Position numbers and translations under genes: made by a program
In this document: piece by piece, positions 2,059-60,952 of the stretch
How the letters are laid out: every line of letters starts with the position of its first letter
Numbering within the stretch: the stretch's first letter is position 1
Notes under the pieces: generated by a model
Told to the model about the DNA's origin: nothing
The model's database searches: none
The model's input: only the letters and a program-made list of their open reading frames with translations
Source of the DNA: Candidatus Omnitrophota bacterium
Lineage (GTDB): Bacteria; Omnitrophota; Gorgyraeia; Aquiviventales; Aquiviventaceae
Length of the DNA stretch: 64,000 nucleotides
Assembly (NCBI GenBank): GCA_016198905.1
Contig: JACQHR010000011.1
Coordinates: forward strand, 7,427-71,426
Direction: 5' to 3'

Positions 2059-3153
2059 TTAGGTTGCGCCTGTCCCGCGCCCCTTGCCCCGCGCCCCAGA
2101 CGGTTGCGTACCCATATCGTTGATGCGGTGAATGAGCCGGTTGAGCCGGCCGTAATTTTGGCGATTGAACGTCAAGATCAGCCGCGACAACCCTTGCAAG
2201 TTTGGCTCATCGCGTTCTTCCGCAAGGACTGGGCCCTGGCGGATCGTACCCGAGCCGAGCAGATCGCGAAACTCCTGCGTCAGGCGAGCGACCGCAGCTT
2301 CCGAGAGCGGATGCTGCAAGCGGATCGCCAGCGCGTCTCCGACGTAGCGCAGCGAGTGATACGTGGAATAAAAGTGCAAGATGTACTGCACCGCCTCTTC
2401 CGCGGAGCGCGTCACATGATAAATGGCACGATCATCCGGCGAGATCATGCCGCCGCGCTCAAGTTGTTCCGTGAAAAACTTCAGCAGCGGGGTCCAGAAG
2501 GAGCCTTTCGGCGTATCGACGAAGACGATCGGCCGCGGATCGGACTTGCCTGTTTGGACGAGGGTCAGCGATTCGAAGCCTTCATCGAGCGTGCCGAAGC
2601 CGCCGGGAAACAACACGGTGGCGTGAGACTCTTTGATGAAGAGCAGTTTCCTCGTGAAGAAATATTTACAGTTGATGAGCTTGGGGTCTTTGGCGATGAC
2701 GTCGTTGGCCTCTTGCTCAAACGGCAGGCGGATGTTCAACCCGAAACTCGCCTCGCGGCCGGCGCCTTTATGGCCGGCGCGCATAATGCCGCTGGCGGCT
2801 CCGGTGATGACCATCCAGCCGGCGCGCACCATCTGCTCGCCGAAGGCCGAGGCCATGGCGTACGCCGGATGATCCATGCCCAATCGTGCGGATCCAAACA
2901 TCGCGACTTTGCGGTTATGCCGATAGGGGCGAAAGATGTTGAACGCGTAGCGCAGCTCCTTGAGCGCCGCGTTGAGAATTTTCAGATCACCCGTCGAGGC
3001 GCGGTCTTCGCCGAGGCGATACGCCGACACGACCATCTCCGCGAGCAGCTTGCGATCAAACGCGTCAGTAAAGGGGGCGACGAGCTTGGCAATCTGCGCA
3101 TCGACCGCGGCGTTGCGCGTGGTGTAGGCCCGAGAGGATCGTTGCGGTTTCAT
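2059..3153 (-). CDS. LOG family protein (TIGR00730-like, long PpnN-like form)
   Basis: 364 aa with a PGGFGTLDEGFE (PGGxGTxxE) motif and a GAASGIM Rossmann segment. The C-terminal tail GARGKGRGTGAT is encoded by a G-rich heptamer array. Confidence 0.8.
   Translation of the reverse strand: MKPQRSSRAYTTRNAAVDAQIAKLVAPFTDAFDRKLLAEMVVSAYRLGEDRASTGDLKILNAALKELRYAFNIFRPYRHNRKVAMFGSARLGMDHPAYAMASAFGEQMVRAGWMVITGAASGIMRAGHKGAGREASFGLNIRLPFEQEANDVIAKDPKLINCKYFFTRKLLFIKESHATVLFPGGFGTLDEGFESLTLVQTGKSDPRPIVFVDTPKGSFWTPLLKFFTEQLERGGMISPDDRAIYHVTRSAEEAVQYILHFYSTYHSLRYVGDALAIRLQHPLSEAAVARLTQEFRDLLGSGTIRQGPVLAEERDEPNLQGLSRLILTFNRQNYGRLNRLIHRINDMGTQPSGARGKGRGTGAT
2066..2097. repeat. G/C heptamer array (GGGGCNN on the minus strand)
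   Basis: The minus strand reads GGGGCGC GGGGCAA GGGGCGC GGGACAG. It encodes the LOG C-terminal tail and ends about 10 nt from the dnaE start codon. Confidence 0.8.
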
Positions 3154-7664: not shown

Positions 7665-8782
7665 GCTGTCACGTTCCTGATGAATCGTTGGGGAGCTGCC
7701 TCAAACTGTTGCCGGCACTTGAGAGAACAGAACCGGTAGAGCGTCCCTCGATCGGTCGCTGAGAAACCAGAGAGCGCAGGGTCCACGTCCATGCCGCAGA
7801 CGACATCGTGGACCCTGCGCGTTTGTGGGGGAGCCGGGGGTGCGGTCGTGACTTCCAAGGATTTGACGATGATTTGGCCCAGCAGCCGTTCGACATCTTC
7901 TCGACGGCAGAGCTGCGTGCCCTCGTGCATGACGGCCGCTGTGCCGGCGGCGGTGCCCAGTCTCATGGCGGATTCCAGCGGTTGACCTTGGGAGAGCGCA
8001 AACACGAACCCGGCCAGGAACGAATCGCCGGCCCCGACTTTGCTTTTGACCTCGACATCAGGACTGGTCACATGGAGCGCCGCATCCTGACTGACGATCA
8101 GCGCCCCCCTGCGTCCTAACGTGATCGCCACGACCTGGACGCCCTCCTGCACGAGTTGCCGGGCTGCGCCGACCATCGCCTGTTCATCGGGCAGCGACCG
8201 ACCCATGAGCCGGGCGAACTCGTGTTCGTTCGGTTTGATCAGGTAGGGCTTGGCTTGCAGGCCGAGCTTCAAGACCTCGTCATCAGCATCCAGCAGACAC
8301 TTCATGCCGCGCTGTTGGAGGGTCGTGATGAGCTTGGCGTAAAAGTCTTCCGGCACCCCTGGCGGGAGGCTCCCTCCGAGCACCCACCACGGGGGCGTCG
8401 GCTGATAGGTCACGATCTTCTGCATGAAGCCTTCAACATCCGCCAGCGTCATCCGGGGACCCGGCGCACTGATGCGCGTCTGGGTCCGATCAGAACGATC
8501 CGTCAGGATGACGTTGATGCGAGTTTCCTCCGGAACCTCGATCGCCTCAAACGGGATGCCATGCTCGGCCATCAGACTCTTGAGCATGTAGCCGGCACAG
8601 CCCCCGGAGACGCCGAAGGCCACCGTTTCGCCGCCAAGTTCTTTCACGACTCGTGAGACGTTGATGCCTTTGCCGCCAGGGTCACGGCGGATCTCGCGTG
8701 CCCGGATGGCATCGTCCTTCATCAGCTTGTCGATCAGGATATGCTGATCGATTGACGGATTGATCGTGACCGTTCCAATCAT
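7661..8782 (-). CDS. PfkB-family (1-phosphofructokinase-like) sugar kinase fused to a C-terminal YHS/TRASH domain
   Basis: 373 aa with DPGGKGINV and [11 protein letters not shown]fkB motifs. The C-terminal ~45 aa read [28 protein letters not shown]. Overlaps glgP by 4 nt. Confidence 0.8.
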
Positions 8783-8981
8783 GGCTTCGAGATCATTTTT
8801 TCCAAGAATTGTCTATGACGAATATCATTTCTGATTGTTAACCCCACCGTCATATCCCTGAAACAGGCGCAGCCTATCCTGCGCCTGTGACGATCGTCGA
8901 TACTGCAGGTTCTGGCGCAGCGCCGCCCAAGACTCTGCCGTTTGAGGCGAACGGCAGGCTGGGCAAACCGGGAGGAACACG

Positions 8982-9737
8982 ATGCGACAAGTTCGGTATC
9001 TGAGTATAGTCGTGATCATGGGGTTGTTGAGTTCGACGCTCGTGGAGCGTGGGTACGCCACCCCCTCCACCCACATCTGGGCGCCGTCCACGGATGTCCA
9101 GCCGTACAAGAAGGTTCACCTCACCTCCGACTTCTATGTCCCCACGGAGCAGAACGGTGATGGCTCGCGCGCCAATACCATCACGAACCTTGGTCTGACC
9201 CTGGGCGTCCTGCCCTGGAAATCCGTCAACGCGGAGCTCGGCTTCGACGTCAAGTCCGGAGGCGGCGGGCTGGACGACTGGCCCGTATACTTCAACGCGA
9301 AGATCGGCACGCCTGAGGACCTACTCGGACCTTGGTTTCCCGCGCTGGCCGTCGGCATCTACGATGTCGGAACGAAGCACAACCGCACCACCAACAATGT
9401 GATCTACGGCAAGGCGGCCAAGACCATCAAGGTCAAGGACCTCTCGTTGGGGCGCGTGTCCGTCGGGTATTTCACAGGCGATCCCAATCTCCTGATCAAC
9501 GGGACCAAGCGGGACAACGATGGGCTGCTGTTCGCCTGGGAACGGGTCATGACCGAACTCTCGGATAAACTCTGGGTGGCGGTCGATTACCAGGGCTCGC
9601 GCAGCGCCTATGGCGCCTTGAACCTGGGATTTTCCTGGAAGTTCTCGGAGAACGTCTCGACCATTTTCGCCTATGACCTCTACAACGATCGGGACTTGGC
9701 CGGGACCTACACGGTCCAGGTAGACATCGACTTCTGA
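8982..9737 (+). CDS. Putative outer-membrane beta-barrel protein
   Basis: 251 aa with a signal-like N-terminus, alternating beta-strand pattern and a C-terminal aromatic residue (..TVQVDIDF). This is the only plus-strand gene in the window. Confidence 0.5.
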   Translation: MRQVRYLSIVVIMGLLSSTLVERGYATPSTHIWAPSTDVQPYKKVHLTSDFYVPTEQNGDGSRANTITNLGLTLGVLPWKSVNAELGFDVKSGGGGLDDWPVYFNAKIGTPEDLLGPWFPALAVGIYDVGTKHNRTTNNVIYGKAAKTIKVKDLSLGRVSVGYFTGDPNLLINGTKRDNDGLLFAWERVMTELSDKLWVAVDYQGSRSAYGALNLGFSWKFSENVSTIFAYDLYNDRDLAGTYTVQVDIDF

Positions 9738-10257: not shown

Positions 10258-11733
10258 TTACAGGCTCTTCTTGCTTGACGCCAACCACCGGCTCACCCGT
10301 GATCGCTTCGGTGGCTCTTCGTCCGGTTCGATCGGTCCCGCGAGGTTTGACGCGGCCTCGCGCAACGCCTCCTCTCCAACAATCCCCTGTGTGACCAGCA
10401 ACGTGATACTGCTTTCCAGCGCGTGCATCCCTTCATGGACTCCGAGCTCGATGTAGCCGCGCAGCTCATGGAGCGCATTGCGGCGGATGACGTTGCGCAC
10501 TGCCAGCGTGGCTAGAAGCACCTCGGTCGCCGCGACCATCCCGGTTCCGTCCCGGCGCTTGAGGAGCCGTTGGGCGACGATCGCTTGAAGGGATTGAGTC
10601 AGTTGGATACGGATCTGTCCCTGGATCTCAGCCTCGAACACATCCAGGATGCGCGTGATCGCCTGGATCGTCGTTCCGCTGTGCAAAGTCCCCAGGACGA
10701 GATGGCCGGTTTCCGCCGCGGTGATGGCCAGCGCAATGCTTTCCCGATCCCGCAGTTCGCCAACCATGATGATGTCCGGGTGTTCGCGCAGCGCGCTGCG
10801 CAACCCATCGGCAAAGGATCGGGTATGGGCGTCCAGTTCCCGCTGGTGGATCAGCGAGCGCTTGTTGGGAATCACGTACTCAATGGGATCTTCAATGGTG
10901 ATGATGTGCCGCTCATCCCGCTGGTTGATGGCATCGATGAGGGCGGCCAGCGTGGTGGACTTGCCGCTTCCCGCTGGCCCGGTCACCAAAATCAGGCCTC
11001 GTGGGCAGCGGCTGAGTTGCTCGAAGATCGGTGGCAGACCCAATTCAGCCAGGGTTGGGATCCGATGGGGAAGAGGCCGGAACGCGATGGCCTGCCCGTC
11101 TTGTTCCCGGAAGACGTTCACCCGAAAGCGCGATAAGCCCTCGATCCCGATCCCCACGTCCACCTCGCGGCCTTCGAGGAATTGCGTCCGCTTGGCCTCC
11201 GGCAACAACGCTTCGATGATGCAGGAGAGGCGGTCTGCGGTCAGCGGAGCGTTGTTGAGCGGCTTGAACGAGCCGTACACCTTGAGGGTGGGCCGATCGG
11301 CGACGGCCAAGAAGAGGTCTGAGGCATTCTGCCGGACCGCCTGTTCCAACCACGGCAGCAGCCCACAGCGGCTCAGGCGTTCGACGAGATTCGCTGGCTG
11401 CTGGACCCCTGGCATAGGAGCCAGCGCCGGGCGTTCGCCGGATTGACTCAAAAACACCGAGGCGCACGTCGGGCAGCAGAATTGGTACGTGGATCCCCGG
11501 ATCGTGAGCGGTGCCGTCGATTCCCCCTGATGGATCGTCTTGCGGCACAGCTCACAATGTCCTGTGGGCGCCTGCGGCTGCTGCTGAGCGAGAAAGCGCT
11601 CCGGCTCCATGAGGAAGGCGCGCTGGCAGGACTCTGCGCAGAAGAAATGCCGCGTGCCAGCGTGGTCGTCATAGAGTCGCGCCTGCTCGGCCTGTTCGAC
11701 CAGCACCTCCATGCCACACACGGGGTCACGCAT
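10258..11733 (-). CDS. pilT: PilT-family type IV pilus retraction-type ATPase with two N-terminal YHS/TRASH-like zinc/copper modules
   Basis: Walker A GPAGSGKSTTLAA, IITIEDPIEY and MVGELRD motifs. The N-terminus has DPVCGMEV..HFFCAESCQRAF and CELCRKT..YQFCCPTCASVF. I chose the start at ATG 11733, which has AAGGAGG 6 nt upstream; the track start 11883 overlaps the previous gene. Confidence 0.85.
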   Translation of the reverse strand: MRDPVCGMEVLVEQAEQARLYDDHAGTRHFFCAESCQRAFLMEPERFLAQQQPQAPTGHCELCRKTIHQGESTAPLTIRGSTYQFCCPTCASVFLSQSGERPALAPMPGVQQPANLVERLSRCGLLPWLEQAVRQNASDLFLAVADRPTLKVYGSFKPLNNAPLTADRLSCIIEALLPEAKRTQFLEGREVDVGIGIEGLSRFRVNVFREQDGQAIAFRPLPHRIPTLAELGLPPIFEQLSRCPRGLILVTGPAGSGKSTTLAALIDAINQRDERHIITIEDPIEYVIPNKRSLIHQRELDAHTRSFADGLRSALREHPDIIMVGELRDRESIALAITAAETGHLVLGTLHSGTTIQAITRILDVFEAEIQGQIRIQLTQSLQAIVAQRLLKRRDGTGMVAATEVLLATLAVRNVIRRNALHELRGYIELGVHEGMHALESSITLLVTQGIVGEEALREAASNLAGPIEPDEEPPKRSRVSRWLASSKKSL

Positions 11734-11743
11734 TGGACCTCCT

Positions 11744-12382
11744 TCACTCATGCAGGGCATTGAGGAGGCCCTCAATCCCTTGGTCGTCGTACAGCTTCCG
11801 CAGACGTTTTCGCTCAGTGCGAATCGCATCGTCGGCCTCAGAGGCTGGAAGTTCTTGCGGTTCCGGAGGCCAGAGTGTCCCATCTTGGAAGCGCACCATC
11901 TTTACCGTCAGGAGGGCTTTCACTACCTCCTCAGTCTGTGAAACCCGTTGTTCCCAACGCCGCTGGCGCATCTCTCCGAGCGTGAGTGTTTGGTTATCGT
12001 TCACTTCAACTACCCAGCGCGTTTGATCGAACGCATCGAGCAGTTTCCACTGGAACCGGACGGCGCTCACACTCCGTTTGCTGCTGTTGCGATACCGAAG
12101 CTGGCCCTCCCAATGGTCGAACTGTGCGCTGTGGATATTAGCAGACTTCGTCCGAGTATGATGAGCAGCACCGACACGTGAAGGGACCGCCTGATACTCC
12201 AAGAGTTGTCCCGTGGCTTCGAGCACATCGATTGGTGCAGCAGGCACCTTCACCACCTCAACCGGAACCTCCTGATCGGCAAACGTACGTCCCATTATCG
12301 AGCCATACAACACGCTGGCGGCGAACACCCATCTGAGTGCCTGGGGCACGACGTGGCTGGAGGATCGCTCCTCACCGCGCAT
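11744..12382 (-). CDS. Hypothetical secreted protein
   Basis: 212 aa ORF with a hydrophobic signal-like N-terminus (VFAASVLYGSIMG) and a coding-like composition. I recognise no family. Confidence 0.5.
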   Translation of the reverse strand: MRGEERSSSHVVPQALRWVFAASVLYGSIMGRTFADQEVPVEVVKVPAAPIDVLEATGQLLEYQAVPSRVGAAHHTRTKSANIHSAQFDHWEGQLRYRNSSKRSVSAVRFQWKLLDAFDQTRWVVEVNDNQTLTLGEMRQRRWEQRVSQTEEVVKALLTVKMVRFQDGTLWPPEPQELPASEADDAIRTERKRLRKLYDDQGIEGLLNALHE

Positions 12383-19064: not shown

Positions 19065-20427
19065 CCGTCATCCCTTCTAAGGCGGCTTTGAGGCGGCTCT
19101 CGGAGTCGATCAGGAAGTTGCCGCTGGTGACGACGAGCTCCCCCTCGGACACGCCGCTCTTGATCTCATAGTAGCCCTCCGCCTTGACCCCAACGGTGAC
19201 ATCACGCGGCTCAAAAAGCCCCTGGCCTTTATCGACGAAGATGACCTGCTTTGTCCCCGTGTCGAACACGGCCTCTTCGGGAACTGCGAGCACCTCGCCC
19301 GCGGCGACGGCGATGGAGGCGTTCACGAACATCTCCGGCTTCAGGATATTCTCAGGATCGGTCAGGATAGCCCGCACGCGGGCTGATCGCGTCGCAGGAT
19401 CCAGCACCGGGTCGATCGAGCGGATCGTGCCTGCCAAGGTCTTGCCGGGAATGGCTTGGATTTCGATCGTGATGATCTGGCCGACGTTGACTAGCGGCAA
19501 TTCATACTCGTAGATCGGCGCATAGAGCCACACCCGACCATTCGGATCGGCCAGCAACAAGCTCTGGTCAGGCCCGGTCCAACCGGCCATCTCATCGATC
19601 AGCTCATTGCTTAACCCCAATCGACGCAGCCGAAAACGGCTGGAGTCAACCAGCCGCTGCGCCCGCTCAGTCACCTCCGGCATGGTGCCGGTCTTGGCTT
19701 GTTCCAACGCTTTCAGAGCCTGAAGGTATTCCTGCTCGGCCTGATACAGCTCCGGATCGTTCGCGATCTGTCCGACCGTTCGGATGATCTTGTTGATCGT
19801 CCGACGCTGCACTGGTGCTGTGGTGACACCGATGAACTGTCGCTTTTGGGACGTAACCAGGATTGGCGCGTACCCTTCAGGTGCAGTGGCTGAAACCTCA
19901 CCAGAGACTCCGTTTTCCTCGTAGACCGGAATCAGATCCATCCCCATCGGCGATTTGCCCGGCTTGTCCGACTTGTAGCCCGGAAGCATCGGATCGGTCC
20001 AGTAGAGGATTGTCTTCTCTTCCCCGGCGGGCGAGACGGAGGAGCTGACCGCAGCCTCCGCCACATGGGTTCCACAGATTGGGCAGACGACCTTTTCCCC
20101 CGCTTTGGCCATGACGAGCATGGGACATTTTTGTCCCGGCTTCATCATCGGGCAATTGTGCATGTAGCAAATATCTTTCGCCGTCTTTGCCGTGTGCTGT
20201 GTGCTTAGTGCCGTGTGCTGTGTGCTTTCTTTCTTGACCAACTTCATGTTGCAGATCGGACAGTCCCCGGGACGATCCGCGGTATAGGTGGGGTGCATCG
20301 GACAATAGTAGACGACCTGTTGGTGCGCGCCGGGACGGACCCGAGAGACGACTCCCACCACAGCCACGCCAAGGAGGCTGGCAATGATCAAGCCTCCAAT
20401 GAGTTGAGGGTTCTTGACGCGCATCAT
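19036..20427 (-). CDS. cusB: Efflux RND periplasmic adaptor (CusB-like) with N-terminal CPMHP..CPIC metal-binding modules
   Basis: 463 aa with YYCPMHPTY..CPICNMKL and CPMLV..CPICGTHV, plus a membrane-fusion-protein core. Contains an in-frame heptamer-repeat insertion (STQHTALSTQHTAKTAK). Confidence 0.9.
   Translation of the reverse strand: MMRVKNPQLIGGLIIASLLGVAVVGVVSRVRPGAHQQVVYYCPMHPTYTADRPGDCPICNMKLVKKESTQHTALSTQHTAKTAKDICYMHNCPMMKPGQKCPMLVMAKAGEKVVCPICGTHVAEAAVSSSVSPAGEEKTILYWTDPMLPGYKSDKPGKSPMGMDLIPVYEENGVSGEVSATAPEGYAPILVTSQKRQFIGVTTAPVQRRTINKIIRTVGQIANDPELYQAEQEYLQALKALEQAKTGTMPEVTERAQRLVDSSRFRLRRLGLSNELIDEMAGWTGPDQSLLLADPNGRVWLYAPIYEYELPLVNVGQIITIEIQAIPGKTLAGTIRSIDPVLDPATRSARVRAILTDPENILKPEMFVNASIAVAAGEVLAVPEEAVFDTGTKQVIFVDKGQGLFEPRDVTVGVKAEGYYEIKSGVSEGELVVTSGNFLIDSESRLKAALEGMTGGGHQHGGQ
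20189..20230. repeat. Two tandem 21-nt units built of GCTGTGT-type heptamers, inside cusB
   Basis: GCCGTGTGCTGTGTGCTTAGT followed by GCCGTGTGCTGTGTGCTTTCT. Confidence 0.9.
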
Positions 20428-21767: not shown

Positions 21768-21819
21768 CTATCCTCGACATAGTGTATCAACATCCATGCG
21801 CCGAGGATAGCGACCGATA

Positions 21820-21872
21820 GATCAGTGTGGCAGGGCCTGCCGCTGCGCGTCACCCGCCACACTGACCATGCC
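21820..21872 (-). repeat. Dispersed repeat copy A, in the cusC leader
   Basis: The minus strand GGCATGGTCAGTGTGGCGGGTGACGCGCAGCGGCAGGCCCTGCCACACTGATC matches 47482-47512 plus 47598-47625 on the plus strand. Confidence 0.8.
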
Positions 21873-23305: not shown

Positions 23306-23397
23306 CAGCACAAAGCACTAAGCACACAGCACAAAGCAACTGCGTTCTGTGAAGATCCCACGACCCGCTTTATGCTTTGTGCTGTTTGCTGTGTGCT
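23306..23397. repeat. Heptamer-built inverted repeat (hairpin) between the DUF423 stop and the csoR promoter
   Basis: Left arm CAGCACAAAGCACTAAGCACACAGCACAAAGC, right arm TGCTTTGTGCTGTTTGCTGTGTGCT, loop of about 32 nt. Confidence 0.85.
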
Positions 23398-29894: not shown

Positions 29895-29941
29895 GTAAAG
29901 TAATTCTCTAGGCTTGTGAGTTGCGCCACAGAAGCAAATCA

Positions 29942-30043
29942 GTGCCGCTCTAAATAGTGTCGTCTAAGGGCTGGGTCAGCACATGTTAGTCGGGTCTATT
30001 TAGGAAGATCGGTGCCGTCCTAAATAGTGTCGTCTAAGAGCTG
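29942..30043. repeat. Two 32-bp direct repeats (29/32 identical), 70-bp period, upstream of the orphan gene
   Basis: GTGCCGCTCTAAATAGTGTCGTCTAAGGGCTG (29942-29973) and GTGCCGTCCTAAATAGTGTCGTCTAAGAGCTG (30012-30043). The spacer holds CTATTTAGGA, the inverse of TCCTAAATAG. Confidence 0.8.
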
Positions 30044-30236
30044 CATCATCAAGTGGCGGGTGGCAGGGCGGCCACCGAGCCGGACGTCTCGGAGGGCGAG
30101 CGGCCACGGTTCACGCCATCACCATTCCCTAGCGGGAGAGCGAGCCCGAGAGCCGAGCGCCGGCGGCCACGGTGGGGCCGACGAGCGCGTGCCGGCGAGG
30201 GGACGCCCTGACAACACCCACCGCTCTGAAATGCAG

Positions 30237-32751: not shown

Positions 32752-33648
32752 TTATGATTTAAATGATTTCTTGCTCTGAGGCGGTTTTGGAAGAAGGCTC
32801 AGATGGTAGAGGCCTTCAAGGACAAGGTGGGGTTTGAGCACATCGATGGTCTTGGAATGCTTGACAATCAGCGGGCTGGCTCCGCCGGTGGCAACGACCT
32901 TGGCGTTTGGGGCATATTGCCTCTTCAGTTGGGTCACCAATCCATCGCAGAGCGCCACACAACCAAAGAGCACGCCGGAGCGGATGCTGTTGGCGGTGTC
33001 GCGGCCCAGCAGCTCGGGCGGCTCGCGCAGCTCAACTTTCGGCAAGAGCGCGGTGCGGCTGGCGAGCGCTTCGAGCGAGATATCCAGGCCGGGCGCGATG
33101 ACGCCGCCGAGGTATTCTCCACCCCGCCCCTTGCTCCCGGTTTGGCGGGGGCCAGCTTTCACGATATCAATGGTGATGGCAGTGCCAAAATCGGCGACGA
33201 TGCAATCCTGCCCGCGCCCCCTGCCCCCTGCCCCCTGCCCCTGAGGAGCGCCGAATTCCTTCCATGCAGCGTAAGCTCCAACCAGGCGGTCTTGCCCCAC
33301 CTGCTCCGGATATGCGTAGCGGTTCTTGAGCGGGACGAACACATCTTGGCCGACAATGCGAATGGGAACGGCCTTCAATGAATGTAGAGCCTCGGTCAGC
33401 ACCGAGGCCATGCGCGGCACGACGCTGCAGAGGACGATCTGCTTGGCTTTCGTGAGATGCAGCCGTCGGCTCGTGGCCAGCGCTTTCAGTTGAAGGGTGA
33501 CTTCATCCGGCGTGCGCCAGGGTTGTGTCGCGATGGAAAACTGCGATCTTAGCCGCGCGCCCTCCCCGGCCCGTCCATCACGAGAGCCGGGGCGGGCAAA
33601 GACGCCAAAGCTCGTCGTCGTGTTCCCGATATCAATCGCGATCATCAT
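32752..33648 (-). CDS. coaX: Type III pantothenate kinase
   Basis: MMIAIDIGNTTTSFGVF start and VADFGTAITID. Carries a repeat-encoded insertion PQGQGAGGRGRGQD. Confidence 0.9.
   Translation of the reverse strand: MMIAIDIGNTTTSFGVFARPGSRDGRAGEGARLRSQFSIATQPWRTPDEVTLQLKALATSRRLHLTKAKQIVLCSVVPRMASVLTEALHSLKAVPIRIVGQDVFVPLKNRYAYPEQVGQDRLVGAYAAWKEFGAPQGQGAGGRGRGQDCIVADFGTAITIDIVKAGPRQTGSKGRGGEYLGGVIAPGLDISLEALASRTALLPKVELREPPELLGRDTANSIRSGVLFGCVALCDGLVTQLKRQYAPNAKVVATGGASPLIVKHSKTIDVLKPHLVLEGLYHLSLLPKPPQSKKSFKS
33209..33243. repeat. (GCCCCCT)n heptamer array inside coaX
   Basis: TGCCCGCGCCCCCTGCCCCCTGCCCCCTGCCCCTG. The coding strand is G-rich. Confidence 0.9.
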
Positions 33649-33692: not shown

Positions 33693-34523
33693 TCACCGCA
33701 ACAAGGTCACTTCGCCCATGTCGAAGGCGCGCTGGACGCCGGAGTCAAGACGGACGACGAGCCGGCCTTGCTCATCGAGATCGCTGGCGGTGCCTTCGAA
33801 GCGGCTGGAGCCGGCGGCGATGTGCACGACCTGGCCGAAGAGCCCCATGAACGGTCGCAGCGCTTCACGGATCGGGGCGAATCCTTGCGATGACCAGACA
33901 TCGTACCACGTCTGAAACTGGCGGCACAACGCCGCCGTCAGCTCATACGAGTCTGCGTGCATGGCTCCCGCGGCTTTGAGCGATGTCGCGTGCTCAGGCA
34001 AATCGAGCGGATCGGTGGTGACGTTGAGGCCGACGCCGATGATGACGTAGCTCTGTGTGCTGTGTGCTTGGTGCTGTGTGCTAAAGGGTATTGCGGCTTC
34101 CACCAAAATCCCGCATACCTTTTTACCATCGATGAGGACGTCATTCGGCCAGCGGATCGTGGCAAACAACCCCGCAGATTGTTGAATCGTCTGCACCGCC
34201 GCGAGCCCGGCCACGAGCGACAGCTGCGGGATTTCGGTAGCGGTATGCAGGGGCCAGAGAATCAGCGAGAAGTACGCACCGCCTGCGGGCGACTCCCACA
34301 CGCGGCCAAGCCGGCCACGTCCCTGCTCCTGGCGCTGGGCCCACACGAGTGTCCCGTGCGGCGCGCGTTGTTGGGCCAGCTCATGCGCGACTTCCATCGT
34401 CGAGCCGACGGACGAAAACGCGTACAGCGAGCGGCCCATGGCGGTGCCCTCGAGGTGCTGGCGCAGCCGGGCTTCAAGCGCGCAATCGCGTGCGACTGGG
34501 GCGGCGGCGCTGGGTTGGCTCAT
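33693..34523 (-). CDS. birA: Biotin--[acetyl-CoA-carboxylase] ligase
   Basis: GRGRLGRVWESPAGG (GRGRxGRxW) motif. The start may be internal, since the track start overlaps uvrB by 50 nt. Contains an in-frame heptamer segment STQHQAHSTQS. Confidence 0.85.
   Translation of the reverse strand: MSQPSAAAPVARDCALEARLRQHLEGTAMGRSLYAFSSVGSTMEVAHELAQQRAPHGTLVWAQRQEQGRGRLGRVWESPAGGAYFSLILWPLHTATEIPQLSLVAGLAAVQTIQQSAGLFATIRWPNDVLIDGKKVCGILVEAAIPFSTQHQAHSTQSYVIIGVGLNVTTDPLDLPEHATSLKAAGAMHADSYELTAALCRQFQTWYDVWSSQGFAPIREALRPFMGLFGQVVHIAAGSSRFEGTASDLDEQGRLVVRLDSGVQRAFDMGEVTLLR
34053..34082. repeat. GCTGTGT-type heptamer array inside birA
   Basis: CTGTGTGCTGTGTGCTTGGTGCTGTGTGCT. Confidence 0.9.
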
Positions 34524-36546: not shown

Positions 36547-37431
36547 TCATTGGATCACTCGCAGCGACATATCCAACGAGGTCGCAGAGTGGGTGAGGCG
36601 GCCGATGGAGATGCGATCGACGCCGGTCTTGGCGATGGCGCGGACGTTGGCCAGCGTCACGCCGCCGGAAACTTCCAGCAAGACAGACCGGAGACCGGAG
36701 ACCGGAGACCGGACCGCCGCCCGAATTTCTTTAAGTGACATGTTGTCTAAGAGAATCGCGTCAGGTCGTGCATGGAGTGCCACTTGGAACTCACGGAGGT
36801 TTGTCACTTCGATTTCCACAGACCGCCTTGGTCTGACACGTTTGGCTGTTGCGACGAGCAGGGGGACGAGGCTTTCACTGTGTGCTGTGTGCTGTGTGCT
36901 GTGTGCTCTCAGGTGGTTCGTCTTGATCAAGATCGCCTCGGCCAGATCGCTGCGATGACTGGAGCCCCCGCCGGCGCGGACCGCGCACTTTTCTAGCGCA
37001 CGCAATCCGGGGGTCGTTTTCCTGGTGTCGAAAATTTTCGCGCGCGTGCCACGGACTCGCTGCACATAGGCCTGTGTCAGTGTGGCGATGCCGGAAAGAT
37101 GTCCAAGGAAATTGAGTGCGACCCGTTCGGCAGCGAAGATCGAGCGCGCTCGTCCCTCGATGGTGAGAATGGGCGTGCCAGGAGAAATCTTGGCACCGGA
37201 ACGCACGTGCAGCCGGCAGCGCAATGATGGATCCAGGGTCTTGAACGTCAGCATCGCCATCTTCACGCCGGCGGCGATACCGGACGACTTCGCGATGATG
37301 CGAGCCGTAATGCGCTGATTTGCCGGGATGATGGCGCGCGAGGTGACGTCGTGGCGGGCGCGATCCTCTGCGAGGGCGTGGCGAATGATCGGCAGCACTG
37401 CGCGGGCGGTCACGTCAGCCATTGCGCTCAC
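36547..37431 (-). CDS. nadC: Nicotinate-nucleotide diphosphorylase (carboxylating)
   Basis: 294 aa with ILIKTNH and LLEVSGGVTL..ISIGRLTHS. Carries two repeat-encoded segments (AHSTQHTAHS; VRSPVSGLRS). Confidence 0.9.
   Translation of the reverse strand: MSAMADVTARAVLPIIRHALAEDRARHDVTSRAIIPANQRITARIIAKSSGIAAGVKMAMLTFKTLDPSLRCRLHVRSGAKISPGTPILTIEGRARSIFAAERVALNFLGHLSGIATLTQAYVQRVRGTRAKIFDTRKTTPGLRALEKCAVRAGGGSSHRSDLAEAILIKTNHLRAHSTQHTAHSESLVPLLVATAKRVRPRRSVEIEVTNLREFQVALHARPDAILLDNMSLKEIRAAVRSPVSGLRSVLLEVSGGVTLANVRAIAKTGVDRISIGRLTHSATSLDMSLRVIQ
36685..36712. repeat. (AGACCGG)x4 heptamer array inside nadC
   Basis: Four perfect tandem AGACCGG units. Confidence 0.95.
36878..36907. repeat. (CTGTGTG)x4 heptamer array inside nadC
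   Basis: CTGTGTGCTGTGTGCTGTGTGCTGTGTGCT. Confidence 0.95.
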
Positions 37432-40307
37432 ATGGCTTGCAGAACAGCGAGGTGCTCGGCGGTTTTCTTGAGCGTCTCTTCGAGCTGAGTCTTGCGATCG
37501 CGGGCTCCCTGAACGACCTCTGCCGGAGCCTTCTCGGTGAAGTGGCGATCCTTGAGGCGCGCTTCAGCCTGCTGCAAATGCTTCGTGAGCTCCTCCACCT
37601 GCTGTTGCTTGCGCGCGCGTTCTTTGTCAACATCGATCAGGCCGGCCAGCGGCAGGATGACTTCGATGCCATCGACGACCGCTGAAGCGGCGTCCTTGGG
37701 CTTCTGCGCCTTCGCGGCTACATGCACCTCACCCACGCCCGCCAGCGTCTTGAGCAGCGACTGCTGCGACTCGAAAAAGCTGCGCAGCGCGGCGTGCTGC
37801 GTGATCAGATGCACCGGCGGTTTGCGATCAGGCGGGACGTTCAATTCCGCGCGCGTCGTACGGATCGCTCCCACCACCGCGGTGAAACGTTCAAACTGCG
37901 ATTCCGCTTCATCATCAATGAGTTTTTTGTCTGGTTTTGGCCAAGCCGCCTTCATGATCGACACGGCTTTGTCAGTGTGCTGTGTGCTGTGTGCTGTGTG
38001 CTGGAGCTGTTGCCAGAGCTCTTCGGTGACAAACGGCATCACCGGATGCAGCAATCGTAGGCCCGTCTCCAACACATGGACAAGAATAGCTTTGGTGGTT
38101 TCTTGTTGCTTGGTGCTTGGTGCTTGGTGCTGAAGTTGGACTTTTGCGATCTCCAGATACCAGTCGCAGAAATCGTGCCAGAGAAAATCGTACAACGCGG
38201 TGGCCGCCTCATTAAAGAGGCACGCATCCAGCGACTTCGTCACGGCCATCACGGTATGCTGCAGCCGCGAGAGAATCCATCGATCGGGTACAGTGATGGC
38301 AGCGGGTCCTGCCGCCTGCGAGACCCCGCCGTCCGTCCTCGCCCGGCGACTATCGCGCCGGCTCTCCGGGCGGGCGGCAGGGGCCTCCCCTCCGGCGTCA
38401 CCCGCTGCAAGCACGAAGCGCGTCGCGTTCCAGAGTTTGTTGGCGAAGTTGCGGCCGGCGGTAAAACGCTCTTCCGAAAGAAAGATATCCTGCCCGATCG
38501 CCGTGGAGGTGATCAGCGTATAGCGCAACGCATCCGTACCGTACTGCTTGATAATGTCCAGCGGATCAATGATATTGCCGAGCGACTTGGACATCTTCTT
38601 GCCGGTGATGTCGCGCACGGTGCCATGGATGTAGACGTTGGAAAACGGCAAGTCCTTCATGCAGAAGTAGCCGGCCATGACCATGCGCGCGACCCAGAAG
38701 AAGATGATCTCTTGCGCGGTCACCAGCGTATCCGTTGGATAGAAATAGTCGAGGTCTTTGGTCTTATTCGGCCATCCCAGCGTCGAGAATGGCCATAACC
38801 ACGAGGAGAACCACGTATCCAGCACATCTTCATCTTGCTTGAGGTCAACGTTTCCACATTGAGGACACGTTGCGGGTTTCGATTTCGAAACGATTACACC
38901 GAGCTCTGGGGCGTGGGGCGCGGGGCGTGGGGCATGGGTTGGGATCTTCCCCTGCCCCCTGTCTCCCGCCCCTTGCCCCTGACTACAGTTATTGCAGTAC
39001 CAGACCGGCAAACGATGGCCCCACCAGATTTGGCGGCTGATGCACCAGTCCTCGATGTTCTCCATCCAATTCAAGTACACCTTGGTCCAACGCTCGGGCG
39101 AAAACTTCAACTTCCCTTTCTTCACCGCTTCGATGGCCGGCTTGGCCAACGGCTTCATCTTCACGAACCATTGCGGACTCAAGCGCGGTTCAACGACGGT
39201 ATGACATCGATAGCAATGACCGACGTTGTGCTGATGCTCATCGATCGCCCCAAGAAATCCTTGCTGCTCCAAGTCGACGATCAACTTGCTGCGGCAGTCG
39301 AGCCGATCCAAGCCCTCATACGCCTTCGGCACGTTGGTCATGTGCGCGTCATCGGTCATCACGTTGATAAACTCCAACCCGTGTTTCTTTCCGAGTTGGA
39401 AGTCGACCGGATCGTGCGCCGGCGTCACTTTGACCGCTCCGGTGCCGAATGCTTTATCGACTTGCTCATCGGCAATGATGGAAATCTTCCGATTCACGAG
39501 CGGCAGGATCGCGTGCTTGCCGATCAACGCCTTATAGCGCTTGTCTTTCGGATGGACGGCAATCGCGGTGTCGCCGAGCATCGTCTCGGGCCTCGTCGTG
39601 GCAACTTCAATAAAGTCAGGGGCGTGGGGCGTGAGGCGTGGGGCGTGGGACTTCTTTTTCCCCTGCCCCCCGTCCCCTGCCCCCTGCCCCTCAATCGGAT
39701 AGCGAATATGATACAGCTTGCCTTGCGTGTCCTTGCGCGGCGCTTCTTCATCGGCGAGTGCGGTTTGACAGCGCGGGCACCAGTTGATGATGTAGTTGCC
39801 GCGATAAATGAGCCCGTCGTTGTAGAGTCGGATAAAGACGTCGAGCACCGCTTCGGAAAGCCCTTCATCCATCGTGAAGCGCGTCCGGCGCCAGTCACAC
39901 GAGGAGCCAAGCCGCTTGAGCTGATACAAAATCGTATTGCCGTACTGCTCCTTCCATTGCCACACGCGCTGGATGAACGCGTCGCGCCCTAAGTCCTGGC
40001 GCGTCTTCCCTTCCTTGGCCAGGGCGCGCTCGACGACGTTTTGCGTGGCGATGCCGGCGTGGTCAGTTCCGGGAACCCACAACGCATTGAAGCCCTGCAT
40101 GCGCTTCCAGCGAATCAGGATGTCCTGAATCGTATTGTTGAGCGCATGGCCCATGTGCAGGATGCCCGTGATATTGGGCGGCGGGATCACGATCGTGTAG
40201 GGCTTGCGTGTGGGATCGACGTCGGCCTGGAACAGGCCCTGAGCCTCCCACCATTGATAGCGGGATTCTTCGACAGTCTGTGGATTGTACTGCGAAGGCA
40301 ACTCCAT
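37428..40307 (-). CDS. valS: Valine--tRNA ligase
   Basis: 959 aa with HMGHALN (HIGH), KMSKSLGN (KMSKS), ATTRPETMLGDTA and a C-terminal coiled coil. Four repeat-derived in-frame insertions. Confidence 0.97.
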   Translation of the reverse strand: MELPSQYNPQTVEESRYQWWEAQGLFQADVDPTRKPYTIVIPPPNITGILHMGHALNNTIQDILIRWKRMQGFNALWVPGTDHAGIATQNVVERALAKEGKTRQDLGRDAFIQRVWQWKEQYGNTILYQLKRLGSSCDWRRTRFTMDEGLSEAVLDVFIRLYNDGLIYRGNYIINWCPRCQTALADEEAPRKDTQGKLYHIRYPIEGQGAGDGGQGKKKSHAPRLTPHAPDFIEVATTRPETMLGDTAIAVHPKDKRYKALIGKHAILPLVNRKISIIADEQVDKAFGTGAVKVTPAHDPVDFQLGKKHGLEFINVMTDDAHMTNVPKAYEGLDRLDCRSKLIVDLEQQGFLGAIDEHQHNVGHCYRCHTVVEPRLSPQWFVKMKPLAKPAIEAVKKGKLKFSPERWTKVYLNWMENIEDWCISRQIWWGHRLPVWYCNNCSQGQGAGDRGQGKIPTHAPRPAPHAPELGVIVSKSKPATCPQCGNVDLKQDEDVLDTWFSSWLWPFSTLGWPNKTKDLDYFYPTDTLVTAQEIIFFWVARMVMAGYFCMKDLPFSNVYIHGTVRDITGKKMSKSLGNIIDPLDIIKQYGTDALRYTLITSTAIGQDIFLSEERFTAGRNFANKLWNATRFVLAAGDAGGEAPAARPESRRDSRRARTDGGVSQAAGPAAITVPDRWILSRLQHTVMAVTKSLDACLFNEAATALYDFLWHDFCDWYLEIAKVQLQHQAPSTKQQETTKAILVHVLETGLRLLHPVMPFVTEELWQQLQHTAHSTQHTDKAVSIMKAAWPKPDKKLIDDEAESQFERFTAVVGAIRTTRAELNVPPDRKPPVHLITQHAALRSFFESQQSLLKTLAGVGEVHVAAKAQKPKDAASAVVDGIEVILPLAGLIDVDKERARKQQQVEELTKHLQQAEARLKDRHFTEKAPAEVVQGARDRKTQLEETLKKTAEHLAVLQAM
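37975..38002. repeat. (GTGTGCT)x4 heptamer array inside valS
   Basis: GTGTGCTGTGTGCTGTGTGCTGTGTGCT. Confidence 0.95.
38103..38132. repeat. (TGGTGCT)-type heptamer array inside valS
   Basis: TTGTTGCTTGGTGCTTGGTGCTTGGTGCTG. Confidence 0.9.
38907..38978. repeat. 72-nt G-arm/C-arm heptamer hairpin module 1 inside valS
   Basis: GGGGCGT GGGGCGC GGGGCGT GGGGCAT .. loop .. CCCCTGCCCCCTGTCTCCCGCCCCTTGCCC. Encodes GQGAGDRGQGKIPTHAPRPAPHAP. Confidence 0.9.
39618..39689. repeat. 72-nt G-arm/C-arm heptamer hairpin module 2 inside valS
   Basis: AGGGGCGTGGGGCGTGAGGCGTGGGGCGTGGGA .. CTTCTTTTT .. CCCCTGCCCCCCGTCCCCTGCCCCCTGCCC. Encodes GQGAGDGGQGKKKSHAPRLTPHAP. Confidence 0.9.
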
Positions 40308-40314
40308 GGCGGAT

Positions 40315-40404
40315 TAGCACAAAGCAGAAAGCACAAAGCACAATGAACGGGTCATGCTGGTTGTTTGCGTTTTCTGTGTGCTGTGTGCTGTGTGCTGTGT
40401 GCTT
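40315..40404. repeat. Heptamer-built inverted repeat spanning the cimA stop codon, 8 nt upstream of the valS start
   Basis: Left arm TAGCACAAAGCAGAAAGCACAAAGCACA, right arm TCTGTGTGCTGTGTGCTGTGTGCTGTGTGCTT. The cimA stop at 40352-40354 lies in the loop. Confidence 0.9.
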
Positions 40405-46947: not shown

Positions 46948-47021
46948 TCGGGGCGCTGGGATTTGAACCCAGGATCTCGTGAACCCCATTCACGCGCGAT
47001 ACCAAGCTTCGCTACGCCCCG
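46948..47021 (-). tRNA. tRNA-Pro (anticodon GGG)
   Basis: Hand-folded cloverleaf: CGGGGCG acceptor, GCGA/TCGC D-stem, CGTGA-ATGGGGT-TCACG anticodon arm, CTGGG-TTCAAAT-CCCAG T-arm. Confidence 0.9.
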
Positions 47022-47481: not shown

Positions 47482-47625
47482 GGCATGGTCGGTTTGGCGG
47501 GTGACGCGCAGCCAGGTCCCCTGCGTCCACCCGGAGTTGCCGGTCGCCGCAGGCGGCGGCGGTACAGCCGCCCGGCGACGAGGACGGACGCATGGTGGCG
47601 CAGCGGCAGGCCCCGCCAACTTGAT
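47482..47625 (+). repeat. Dispersed repeat copy B, split by an ~85-nt insert flanked by GCGCAGC
   Basis: GGCATGGTCGGTTTGGCGGGTGACGCGCAGC (47482-47512) and GCGCAGCGGCAGGCCCCGCCAACTTGATC (47598-47625) match the cusC-leader copy in inverse orientation. Confidence 0.8.
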
Positions 47626-47628
47626 CCA

Positions 47629-48657
47629 TCACATCGATACTGACGGAACACTAGAACCGGTTTCCGATTTTCCGGCTCGACGCATGAGCGCCCGGAGCGC
47701 ATGTCTCGGTACGCGACGGTGGAATAAGATCGCGTGAACCTGTTCGATAATCGGCAGCTCGACGCGGTGGCGCCGGCCAAGCACCACAGCCGCTTTGGCG
47801 GTTTCCACCCCTTCGATGACCATGGGCGTTGAACGCAACACGTAAGCCAGCGAACGCCCTCGTCCGAGCTGTTCGCCGAGCCAATGATTCCGTCCGGAAA
47901 GACAGGTCGTGACAAGATCGCCCAGCCCGCTCAGTCCCCAGAACGTGTCTTCCTTCGCTCCCATGGCGACGCCCAGCCGCGCCATTTCCACGATCCCGCG
48001 GGTGACCAGGGCTGCCTTTGCGTTCGATCCGAATCCCAAACCATCCGCAATGCCCGCGGCGATGGCGATGGGATTTTTCAGCGCACCGCCGAGTTGCACA
48101 CCGAGGAGGTCTCGCGAGGTATAGAGCCGAAAGGTCTCGCTCATCAGCGCGCGCTGCACCTCGTGCGCCACGTGGAGGTCTCGCGCGGCGACGACGGAAC
48201 TGGCCGGTTGTCCCTTGGCGATCTCGGAGGAAATATTCGGGCCGGAGAGGATGGCGAGCTTCACCGCGCCGAGCTCTTCGGTGATGACGGTGGACATGAG
48301 TTTGAGGCTGCCCCGCTCGATGCCCTTGGCGACGCTGACGATTCGCGAGGTGCTCCGGGGCAGTCGCGCGACGCGGCGCACCACGGCACGTAAATACTGA
48401 GATGGAACCGCAAGGATTGCGAGATCCGCCCCTGCCCATGCCTCGGCAAGATCAGCCGTGATCCGAATGCGTGCGGGGATGCGGATGCCCGGAAGGAAGC
48501 GAGGATTTTGACGTCGATGATCCAGCACGCGGACGTAATCGGCAAACGCGCCCCAGAGCGTGACGCGATGTCCCAGACGATAGCTGTGAATGGCGAGCGT
48601 CGTGCCCCATCCACCGTCGCCGAGTACGACGATGTGTCGATGCGTCGATGCTCTCAT
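47629..48657 (-). CDS. gpsA: NAD(P)H-dependent glycerol-3-phosphate dehydrogenase
   Basis: Start MRASTHRHIVVLGDGGWGTTLA at 48657. GALKNPIAIAAG motif. Confidence 0.9.
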   Translation of the reverse strand: MRASTHRHIVVLGDGGWGTTLAIHSYRLGHRVTLWGAFADYVRVLDHRRQNPRFLPGIRIPARIRITADLAEAWAGADLAILAVPSQYLRAVVRRVARLPRSTSRIVSVAKGIERGSLKLMSTVITEELGAVKLAILSGPNISSEIAKGQPASSVVAARDLHVAHEVQRALMSETFRLYTSRDLLGVQLGGALKNPIAIAAGIADGLGFGSNAKAALVTRGIVEMARLGVAMGAKEDTFWGLSGLGDLVTTCLSGRNHWLGEQLGRGRSLAYVLRSTPMVIEGVETAKAAVVLGRRHRVELPIIEQVHAILFHRRVPRHALRALMRRAGKSETGSSVPSVSM

Positions 48658-52017: not shown

Positions 52018-52173
52018 CTATGTGCTTCTCCTCTGATGAATAAAAATGCCGGATTGCTTTTCGGCAACCCGGCGATCCTCAAGGGACCCGTGGCTTTGCG
52101 GCCCTACCTTGCGGTAGGTGTGCCTCCAACCGTTGAAGCGGCTGGGTCCATCGTCGTGCGATGGATTTCTCGT

Positions 52174-60710: not shown

Positions 60711-60899
60711 GAGAAGTAACGAGCGGGTAGCGGGAATCGGTGCCTCCGCTCGCCTCTGGCTCGCTCCGGTCACCGCCCGCGCCTCCCGTGGTGGTCGCCA
60801 CTCGCTATTCGCTCGCGGCTCCGCTTGATGACCAAAGTCGGCGCTCCCTTCGATTCCCGCTACTACTATTGAGAAGTAATCAGCGGGTAGCGGGAATCG
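60711..60899. repeat. 29-bp direct duplication of the tRNA-Gly 3' end plus flank, bracketing a ~130-bp GC-rich insert
   Basis: GAGAAGTAACGAGCGGGTAGCGGGAATCG (60711-60739) versus GAGAAGTAATCAGCGGGTAGCGGGAATCG (60871-60899). The inverse copy CGATTCCCGCTAC lies at 60851-60863. Confidence 0.85.
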
Positions 60900-60952
60900 A
60901 ACCCGCGTAACTAGCTTGGGAAGCTAGCGCACTACCACTGTGCTATACCCGC
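60882..60952 (-). tRNA. tRNA-Gly (anticodon CCC)
   Basis: Hand-folded cloverleaf: GCGGGTA acceptor, GCAC/GTGC D-stem, CTAGC-TTCCCAA-GCTAG anticodon arm, GCGGG-TTCGATT-CCCGC T-arm. Confidence 0.9.

Follow-up and report, generated by a model that had tools for sequence, protein, structure and literature searches.

What are the two closely similar hairpins that lie, in frame, inside the valine-tRNA ligase gene (valS) of a Candidatus Omnitrophica bacterium, and what keeps them there? The DNA under study (the window) is a 64-kb stretch of a metagenome-assembled genome (MAG). Its valS open reading frame (ORF) is a 100% match to the valine-tRNA ligase (ValRS) annotated on a 106-kb contig of a Candidatus Omnitrophica MAG, the product aligns to the enzyme of Thermus thermophilus (1GAX) with an E value of 1e-233, and the gene order leuA-valS-nadC-uvrB-birA...coaX is syntenic with relatives. 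A preliminary description had reported two 72-nt hairpin modules in this gene, at 38907-38978 and 39618-39689, and both are indeed present there. We conclude that they are very probably two copies of a dispersed, non-autonomous DNA repeat of the heptamer-array class. The whole statement, that a DNA-level repeat is passively translated and is maintained by copying or overwriting, has in our estimation a probability of about 0.6. Copying or overwriting between arrays, taken on its own as the mechanism, is a tentative proposal that we rate somewhat short of an even chance.

The two modules, here called A and B, can be aligned without gaps with 80% identity over 76 nt, and they start with TCWGGGGC and end with GCCCCWGA. 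Tandem Repeats Finder (TRF) resolved each into two arms, one G-rich and one C-rich, on either side of a 10-nt loop, with about 4.4 tandem heptanucleotides per arm: (TGGGGCG)x4.6 (38907-38938), loop (38939-38948) and (CCCCTGC)x4.4 (38949-38979) in module A, and (GGGGCGT)x4.4 (39619-39649), loop (39650-39659) and (CCCCTGC)x4.4 (39660-39690) in module B. On the sense strand, module A runs from a GGGGCAG-type arm through the loop into a CCCACGC-type arm. Folding predicted hairpins on both strands, with -47 to -57 kcal/mol and z scores of -3.5 to -5.6 against dinucleotide shuffles (module A, -47.1 [sense] and -57 [antisense] kcal/mol, z -3.5 and -5.0; module B, -51.6 and -51.9 kcal/mol, z -5.4 and -5.6). 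As had been proposed, the modules are translated in frame, module A as GQGAGDRGQGKIPTHAPRPAPHAP between CNNC and CPQC and module B as GQGAGDGGQGKKKSHAPRLTPHAP ahead of ATTRPET, and 18 of the 24 residues are common to both.

ValRS carries inserts at five sites, numbered 1 (before ATTRPET), 2 (the zinc-knuckle loop) and 3 to 5 (positions in Table 1), and the reading frame is unbroken through all five. In comparison with the structure 1GAX, the site-1 module appears as a 22-residue gap between G208 and F209, and the site-2 module enlarges the loop that joins the two halves of the zinc knuckle. An AlphaFold2 model of the protein had a mean predicted local distance difference test score (pLDDT) of 78.6, with values below 50 at residues 209-228, 445-465, 638-669 and 773-778. 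These four stretches are exactly four of the five insert positions, and they are flanked by confident secondary-structure elements. The encoded peptides, rich in Gly/Gln/Arg and Pro/His/Ala, are hydrophilic and lie in modeled disordered surface loops. That the modules are carried through translation passively, as disordered surface loops, is well supported by the predicted structure. Since three heptamers equal seven codons, each unit is read in all three frames, and only units without stops on the sense strand, or those whose stops were mutated away, persist. At another locus of our set, L009, the unit GTCGTTA, repeated in an array, would put a TAG in frame, but a point change in one unit avoids the stop, which argues that the DNA came first and that the ORF was repaired afterwards.

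The heptanucleotide periodicity itself had been overlooked in the preliminary description, as had the other unit families, the sharing of positions across orthologues, the literature on dispersed heptamers and, within valS, the arrays at sites 3 and 4 and the palindrome at site 5. With TRF, 18 period-7 arrays of at least 2.8 copies were found in the window, with GGGGCAG/CCCACGC, AGCACAC and AGACCGG among the unit families, versus 4 arrays for periods 5, 6, 8, 9 and 10 combined; array perfection ranged from 70% to 100%. In 202 kb, comprising the window and the loci of nine close relatives (L081 to L089), there were 75 period-7 arrays versus at most 9 for any other period; their median length was 30 nt (interquartile range, 27 to 31.5 nt). 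The pattern GGGGCNN x3 + GGGG, with up to three mismatches, had 14 matches in the window versus 0.05 expected, and a pattern for the AGCACAC family had 16 versus 0.00. By our tally, at least 13 of the 18 arrays in the window lie inside Pfam-supported genes, mostly in mid-gene and in frame. The 202 kb also hold 20 inverted pairs of arrays. Nearly all the intragenic pairs total 71 to 76 nt whatever the unit, those at gene ends total 88 to 106 nt, and in every intragenic pair listed in the pair table the G-rich arm is on the 5' side. The 71- to 76-nt size of the intragenic pairs and the frame kept by each valS insert help to explain why the modules survive in coding DNA. A spacing of insert sizes in steps of seven amino acids was considered and dropped, the distribution being bimodal and not quantised. 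It is well supported that arrays about 30 nt long, each with about 4.4 tandem heptanucleotides, are the building blocks, and that a palindrome of about 72 nt results where two of them stand in inverted orientation with some 10 nt of loop between them. Equally well supported is that this Omnitrophota lineage is full of such arrays, which belong to a few genome-specific families and occupy the ends of genes and also, read in frame, the loops of housekeeping proteins. The modules are far beyond chance and are no artefact.

Table 1. Heptamer arrays, palindromes and their host gene in the window
Feature	Position	Strand	Basis and remarks
valS (valine-tRNA ligase, 959 aa)	37428..40307	-	ORF and translation; host of both modules
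Module A, ValRS site 2 (zinc-knuckle loop)	38905..38982		Encodes residues 444-467
Module B, ValRS site 1 (before ATTRPET)	39616..39692		Encodes residues 207-230
valS site 3, (AGCACCA)x4.3	38102..38131	-	Encodes QHQAPSTKQQ; net +4 aa versus L088
valS site 4, perfect (AGCACAC)x4.1	37975..38003	-	Encodes QHTAHSTQHT; pLDDT <50 at 773-778; absent in L088
valS site 5 insert, residues 636-670, translated palindrome of ~105 nt	38298..38402	-	No heptamer periodicity
leuA stop-codon hairpin, 88 nt	40316..40403		TRF, fold; spans leuA stop and leuA-valS spacer
nadC, perfect (AGCACAC)x4.3	36878..36907	-	TRF
nadC, perfect (AGACCGG)x4.1	36685..36713	-	Sense CCGGTCT encodes RSPVSGLRS
birA, (AGCACAC)x4.3	34053..34082	-	TRF
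coaX single arm, (GGGGCAG)x5 in sense	33207..33241	-	TRF; Pfam Pan_kinase; encodes QGQGAGGRGRGQ
Hairpin, 91 nt, (AGCACAA)x4.6 + 34-nt loop + (TGCTGTG)x3.6	23307..23397		Apparently intergenic
HlyD/CusB-family gene, (AGCACAC-like)x5.6	20188..20226	-	TRF
LOG/Lysine_decarbox-family protein tail, GGGGCGC/GGGGCAA x3.4	2066..2097	-	Last 13 codons; Pfam PF03641

The valS gene by itself holds six arrays and the site-5 palindrome. Both single arms of the GGGGC family that had been noted before, in coaX and as the C-terminal tail of the LOG protein, were recovered, the latter as SGARGKGRGTGAT-stop when its codons were read by hand. Hosts of the AGCACAC family are the HlyD-like gene, birA, nadC, valS (sites 3 and 4) and the tail of LeuA, and the family also forms the hairpins of 88 and 91 nt. 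The 88-nt hairpin consists of (AGCACAA)x4 (40316-40343) and (CTGTGTG)x4.3 (40374-40403), and the second arm encodes the LeuA tail. The 91-nt hairpin has a fold energy of -42.7 kcal/mol (z -5.6), and the ORF that overlaps it had no Pfam match. The site-5 palindrome folds with -76.1 kcal/mol (z -3.85) and falls in the low-pLDDT stretch 638-669; the orthologous site of the relative L089 has an intact heptamer hairpin (GGCGAGT/CTCATCA), and the site-5 palindrome may be a decayed or a different palindromic element.

Some further observations concern the same features. The valS gene of the relative L088 is split into two ORFs (7500-7700) by a deletion and a frameshift, with loss of the conserved stretch NKLWNATRF...DRWILS at the position of site 5; this is either a real lesion at the palindrome or a mis-assembly. 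The site-2 insert of L016 valS (within 6858-9623) has an in-frame stop (...RAKRSNP*DRDCVV...) and no heptamer periodicity, being either a different inserted sequence that breaks the frame or a sequencing error. The 10-mer GAAGATCCCA is found in the loop of the site-2 module (38939-38948 region) and again in that of the 23.3-kb AGCACAA hairpin (23339-23372), which has a different arm family; it could reflect arms overwritten around an older centre, or chance. A shared flank follows two of the AGCACAC arrays. Both observations are suggestive of chimeras but anecdotal. Finally, the period-7 arrays are concentrated between 20 and 40.4 kb (20188-40403), where 16 of the 18 are found; 0-20 kb (2074) and 41-64 kb (49854) have one each, and such local clustering would fit short-range copying.

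The nine close relatives are independent assemblies from different projects (NCBI, JGI and ENA), and eight of them have orthologous elements at matching sites. In the closest, L088 (GCA_016180605.1; ValRS 82 to 84% identical), the window's own families occupy site 1, site 2 and the end of leuA. In others, sites 1, 2 and 4 of ValRS are filled by genome-specific families, each genome having its own units (GGGGCGG/CCCACGC in L084, which has the GGGGCAG/CCCACGC family in common with the window; GGCTCGG/GCCCAGA in L085; GAGACAG/TGTCTC in L087; GGCTGGA/AGCCTAG, GTTCAAG/CCTCGAA and GGCGAGT/CTCATCA in L089). The leuA stop-codon hairpin was also found in relatives with a unit that differs by genome, namely, the window's unit in L088, CAGAAGT/CTTCTGA in L083 and CAGAAGG in L085. 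The coaX site is filled in L084 and L085, and its insert is missing in L081 and L083. No period-7 array was found in 16 kb of L081, whose ValRS is 76% identical to that of the window. Arrays in the relatives are also found in nadC, uvrB and coaX, and those of the window in coaX, LOG, nadC, birA and the leuA tail. The preliminary description had held that a module unique to valS and conserved as protein would speak for an ancestral domain. The search of the relatives gave the opposite, with other host genes and with peptides that differ by lineage. The modules are DNA-level repeats translated at ValRS loops and not an ancestral domain, as they are absent in T. thermophilus, outside the Omnitrophota and in L081.

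The same picture was obtained on a wider scale. A scan of genome contigs with ValRS gave, among the matches listed, distant orthologues (at most 56% identity), which were used as negative controls. In an alignment of 70 Omnitrophota ValRS proteins, inserts occupy the same loops across most lineages, but their peptides are unrelated and look "palindrome-coded," e.g., GSGLGARGK..RAPSPEPR, GSRLEAGGK..RASSLEPR and SEFRV..NSELRT; RQETGD..PVSRP is also unrelated. Among 75 ValRS loci, minimal loops (10 to 13 aa at site 1; 27 to 28 aa at site 2) are present in all non-Omnitrophota and in many Omnitrophota, and these have neither periodicity nor structure. Site-1 inserts of at least 31 aa, that of L031 excepted, have a period-7 score of at least 0.8 (0.8 to 1.0) and a fold z of at most -3. 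The ValRS neighbourhoods of L076 and L041 (both Bacteroidota), L048 (Verrucomicrobia) and L063 (Firmicutes) contain several period-7 arrays of about 4 to 5 copies, and the unit AGGTTTC/GAAACCT recurs across phyla in some of them (Bacteroidota and Verrucomicrobiota loci). A scan of metagenome contigs with (CCCCACG)x3.3 gave at least 120 matching contigs, with GC contents of 0.45 to 0.78 and 3 to 39 copies, many at contig ends; only L162, L165 and L166 among them were Omnitrophota-like. Since this array is so widespread, the scan was of no use for tracing the family. When 2.9 million viral contigs were scanned for both families, 5 and 12 matches were obtained and there was no enrichment of period-7 arrays; a phage vector thus has no support.

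Several observations bear on how the arrays change at the DNA level. At four-fold degenerate sites, identity between the window and L088 is 34% (n = 664), whereas orthologous arms agree at 132 of 157 positions (about 84%) by an approximate hand count from three alignments, the non-coding arm included, and the loops between them are unalignable. In L085, the 78-nt modules at sites 2 and 4 (11325-11402 and 12224-12301) are 100% identical, loop included, in unrelated flanks, and no target-site duplication was seen when these flanks were read. For some arrays the net gain of sequence is small, the site-3 array adding 4 aa relative to L088 and the nadC arrays adding none, and the site-1 module of L082 has two arms from different families; these three observations favor overwriting over pure insertion. 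Of 20 hairpins, 14 had an antisense fold that equalled or exceeded the sense fold in stability, so that there is no preference for the mRNA strand. RNAalifold, applied to nine site-2 modules, gave only 13 consensus pairs, 10 of them with compensatory changes, at -8.6 kcal/mol. Since the arm registers of different families do not align, we did not take these pairs as proof of covariation.

In the reading that we prefer, the elements would be old residents of particular sites, and sequence-directed copying or overwriting would renew the arrays and keep those of one genome similar to each other. The copying agent could be ectopic gene conversion or transposition by a trans-acting factor, and replication slippage within arrays and template switching between arms probably add to it. 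If so, arms should be conserved, loops should drift, families should differ by genome and a lineage should be able to lose all copies. The conserved positions, the genome-specific families, the conservation of arms beyond neutrality, the identical copies at two sites and the absence from one relative together argue for continuing copying or overwriting that is balanced by loss. The peptide inserts in ValRS and the G-quadruplex potential would be passengers of this DNA-level process.

Several points weigh against copying. Neither a transposase nor a target-site duplication nor a parent element was found in the 64 kb of this genome that were read, and ten host and neighbouring ORFs scanned with Pfam gave no transposase match. 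Hairpins are kept at the same four to five ValRS loops in most of 120 orthologues, where selection could keep structure, and selection could also explain why arm conservation is far above neutral, even in the non-coding arm of the leuA-valS spacer. For arrays of 30 nt that have no homologous flanks, gene conversion would be at the edge of what homologous recombination is known to do. Moreover, unrelated phyla have some of the same units, Geobacter having GGACCGG and CTTCTGA, and the Bacteroidota and Verrucomicrobiota loci AGGTTTC, and copying gives no explanation for the heptamer period or for the length of about four units.

The main rival is that the hairpins and heptad arrays are functional cis-elements under selection at fixed positions, either phased DNA or RNA binding sites for a heptad-reading protein or mRNA structures with a role in ribosome pausing at domain boundaries or in transcript stability at the ends of genes. 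Candidate readers would be ribbon-helix-helix proteins of the omega/pSM19035 type, which bind 7-bp heptads, and cold-shock or S1-type single-strand binders, and the family differences between genomes would then be co-evolution with the binding factor. Such selection is possible, although we consider it unlikely. Arms that are conserved at synonymous saturation next to free loops, the filling of the same ValRS loops and the leuA 3' end across many lineages, a length held tightly near 30 nt across unrelated units and a site-5 palindrome that keeps complementarity without periodicity would all be expected from it, and published heptamer repeats favor positions at most 50 bp from stop or start codons and were proposed as regulator sites (PMC4692102, PMC4679880). 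These conservation data fit cis-elements and copying equally well. What fits cis-elements less well is that the close relative L081 does without all of them and L088 without sites 3 and 4, that folding has no sense-strand bias, and that single arms, chimeric arms and variable net insert sizes are at odds with a precise structural need; in addition, Rfam gave no match at the modules, and the hosts are unrelated housekeeping genes without shared regulation. Slippage and quasi-palindrome template switching are established mutational processes, and the arrays could in principle be ordinary local microsatellites, made by slippage of a local heptamer in place and then by fold-back template switching, with no copying between sites. 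The variable perfection of the arrays would agree with this, but the same units at many unlinked sites within a genome, the narrow and not geometric length distribution and the enrichment at period 7 only do not, and the L085 module, identical at two sites with its non-repetitive loop, already contradicts it; we find a purely local origin hardly probable.

Nor do the inserts behave as functional segments of ValRS, i.e., as an ancestral domain or a protein-selected linker whose DNA regularity is secondary. The peptide GQGAGD.GQGK...HAPRPxPHAP does recur in several orthologues with the GGGGCAG family, but peptides at one site are unrelated between lineages (GSGLGARG..RAPSPEP, SEFRV..NSELRT and RQETGD..PVSRP), the inserts are missing from 1GAX, other phyla and L081, their pLDDT is below 50, and non-coding spacers (40316-40343 and 23307-23338) contain the same DNA units; the idea is already contradicted, and we give it very little credence. 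Assembly artefacts have to be considered because the source is a MAG and low-complexity repeats can mis-assemble, as the split of L088 valS at site 5 and the stop inside the L016 insert might illustrate. With orthologous elements at the same sites in independent assemblies of eight of the nine close relatives, and with a frame that is intact through all five inserts, we regard an artefact as scarcely credible. The preliminary description had also proposed that one element acts as a hairpin, a G-quadruplex and a peptide. Its hairpin potential, its translation-compatible coding and the G-quadruplex sequence motif held up, and the canonical G4N3G4N3G4N3G4 motif was found by prediction at 38908-38932 (+); further motifs are at 38955-38979 (-), 39666-39690 (-), 33217-33241 (-) and 2074-2097 (-), with G4Hunter scores of 1.75 to 2.84 (2.0 to 2.8 for the three in the valS modules). 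Six of the seven canonical motifs of the whole window sit on heptamer arrays, and the four-unit preference of the GGGNATC repeats of Xanthomonas and Nostoc was tied to G-quadruplex formation (PMC4692102). It might thus be argued that the modules are G-quadruplex elements, in which the G-runs, four to an arm, would form the quadruplex in DNA or mRNA and control transcription or translation, a role that has been suggested for those repeats. However, a complementary C arm lies 10 nt from each G arm, with a predicted hairpin of -47 to -57 kcal/mol, and G-poor families have 4.1 to 4.4 copies at matching sites: AGCACAC (G4Hunter, -0.3), AGACCGG (0.1), GTTCAAG and GGCTCAG. Hairpins of GGCTCAG, GTTCAAG and GAGACAG at orthologous sites, and AGCACAC in the window, equal the G-rich ones in length and copy number. 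Therefore, neither copy number nor placement depends on the G-quadruplex, which did not hold up as a trait of the element class; as a sequence potential, it is a by-product of one family, and its role as the reason for the modules is very improbable.

Heptanucleotide tandem repeats of cyanobacteria go by the name STRR. Heptameric repeats have been reported as over-represented among bacterial simple sequence repeats, with "no detailed literature." The GGGNATC repeats of Xanthomonas and Nostoc clearly favor four units and are clustered at ORF ends, and three tandem heptanucleotides were reported for Calothrix PCC7601 (PMC4692102); TAACTGA repeats are common to Beggiatoaceae, Cyanobacteria and Bacteroidetes, with "no mechanism evident" (PMC4679880). 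The arrays described here are like this class in the head-to-tail 7-nt unit, the favored number of about four units, the many dispersed copies, the frequent position at or across stop codons, the patchy distribution across phyla and the lack of a known mechanism. They differ in that the published families are mostly intergenic and depleted in ORFs, whereas here the majority of the arrays lie within Pfam-supported genes, are commonly paired into 72-nt palindromes and occupy orthologous loops across a phylum, the Omnitrophota. In Geobacter metallireducens, Gmet_H4, found both within and between genes, consists of four tandem GGACCGG units, and five tandem MTYCTGA units, shown looping between strands, make up the "class 3" sites; these elements were described as putative regulatory sites in one genome (PMC2700814). 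The intragenic (AGACCGG)x4.1 array of nadC is one base from GGACCGG, the valS modules using other units, and (CTTCTGA)x5 of L083 has nearly the MTYCTGA unit; the Geobacter description, in contrast, covers neither translation nor structural placement, conservation at orthologous sites or turnover of families.

The closest functional analogue, judged by comparison, is the Rickettsia palindromic element (RPE), which is found in frame in unrelated housekeeping genes, is translated and was judged compatible with the fold (PMC10969869). The valS modules share with it the in-frame palindrome at structurally permissive positions of coding genes. By their description, RPEs are set apart as Rickettsia-specific families of about 100 to 150 bp, each with a conserved peptide and without heptamer substructure, whereas the modules here have 72 to 78 nt, arms of tandem heptamers and peptides that vary by genome. 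REP and REPIN elements are short imperfect palindromes or doublets with hairpins of about 70 to 100 nt, present in many copies, genome-specific, conserved within a lineage and mobilised by RAYT (TnpA-REP). They resemble the modules as short multicopy hairpins with a genome-specific sequence conserved within a lineage, but REPs are extragenic, RAYT-linked and have a GTAG/CGTC head; membership was rejected because both modules are inside valS and lack that head. The whole element is an inverted repeat, but membership among the miniature inverted-repeat transposable elements was rejected, no direct repeat flanking the two valS or the two L085 modules. A description of heptamer hairpins specific to Omnitrophota was not found in the literature searched. 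The feature is a variant of a known but unexplained kind of heptamer repeat, and its mainly intragenic, palindromic form with positions conserved across a phylum sets it apart from the published ones.

Elsewhere in the window, there is a c-di-GMP-I riboswitch aptamer at 52060-52134 (-) (Rfam RF01051; 58.9 bits versus a gathering score of 35), and two tRNA genes were found at 46948-47021 (-) and 60882-60952 (-). The apparently intergenic stretches 29938-29981 and 30008-30051 are direct copies of a 44-nt sequence, 84% identical and 70 nt apart. Inverted repeats of 31 to 33 nt with 85 to 94% complementarity connect 21816-21872 with 47482-47512 and 47598-47630, about 25.6 kb away and close to where genes start; common regulatory or leader sequences are one possible identity, and the ends of elements another.

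Published reports of dispersed heptamer repeats cover cyanobacteria, Xanthomonas, Geobacter, Beggiatoaceae and Bacteroidetes, and their origin, spread and function are not established (PMC4692102, PMC2700814, PMC4679880). A bolder idea, which we hold to be doubtful, is that an undescribed system with a 7-nt register acts on heptamer arrays and copies or overwrites them, by an enzyme in trans or by an RNA-templated process. Such a system would set arrays of about 30 nt, in many cases two in inverted orientation, into the chromosome, loops of essential genes included, and would homogenise them. If true, it would account together for a period and a length that stay fixed from unit to unit and from phylum to phylum, for families peculiar to each genome at sites that are conserved, for arms retained past synonymous saturation and for complete loss from some lineages, and the Omnitrophota would be a system for dissecting array writing, with arrays lying inside alignable housekeeping genes.

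Since the arrays of this lineage lie in genes that are conserved and can be aligned, a base-by-base comparison of orthologous sites is possible. In this comparison positions persist, families turn over, arms are conserved at saturation and whole modules are copied, and a descriptive puzzle of heptamer repeats becomes testable in the Omnitrophota. For annotators, it means that low-complexity inserts in MAG proteins can be real. After the RPEs of Rickettsia, this is a second clear case of palindromic repeats that are routinely translated in essential enzymes, and it bears on the origin of disordered protein loops.

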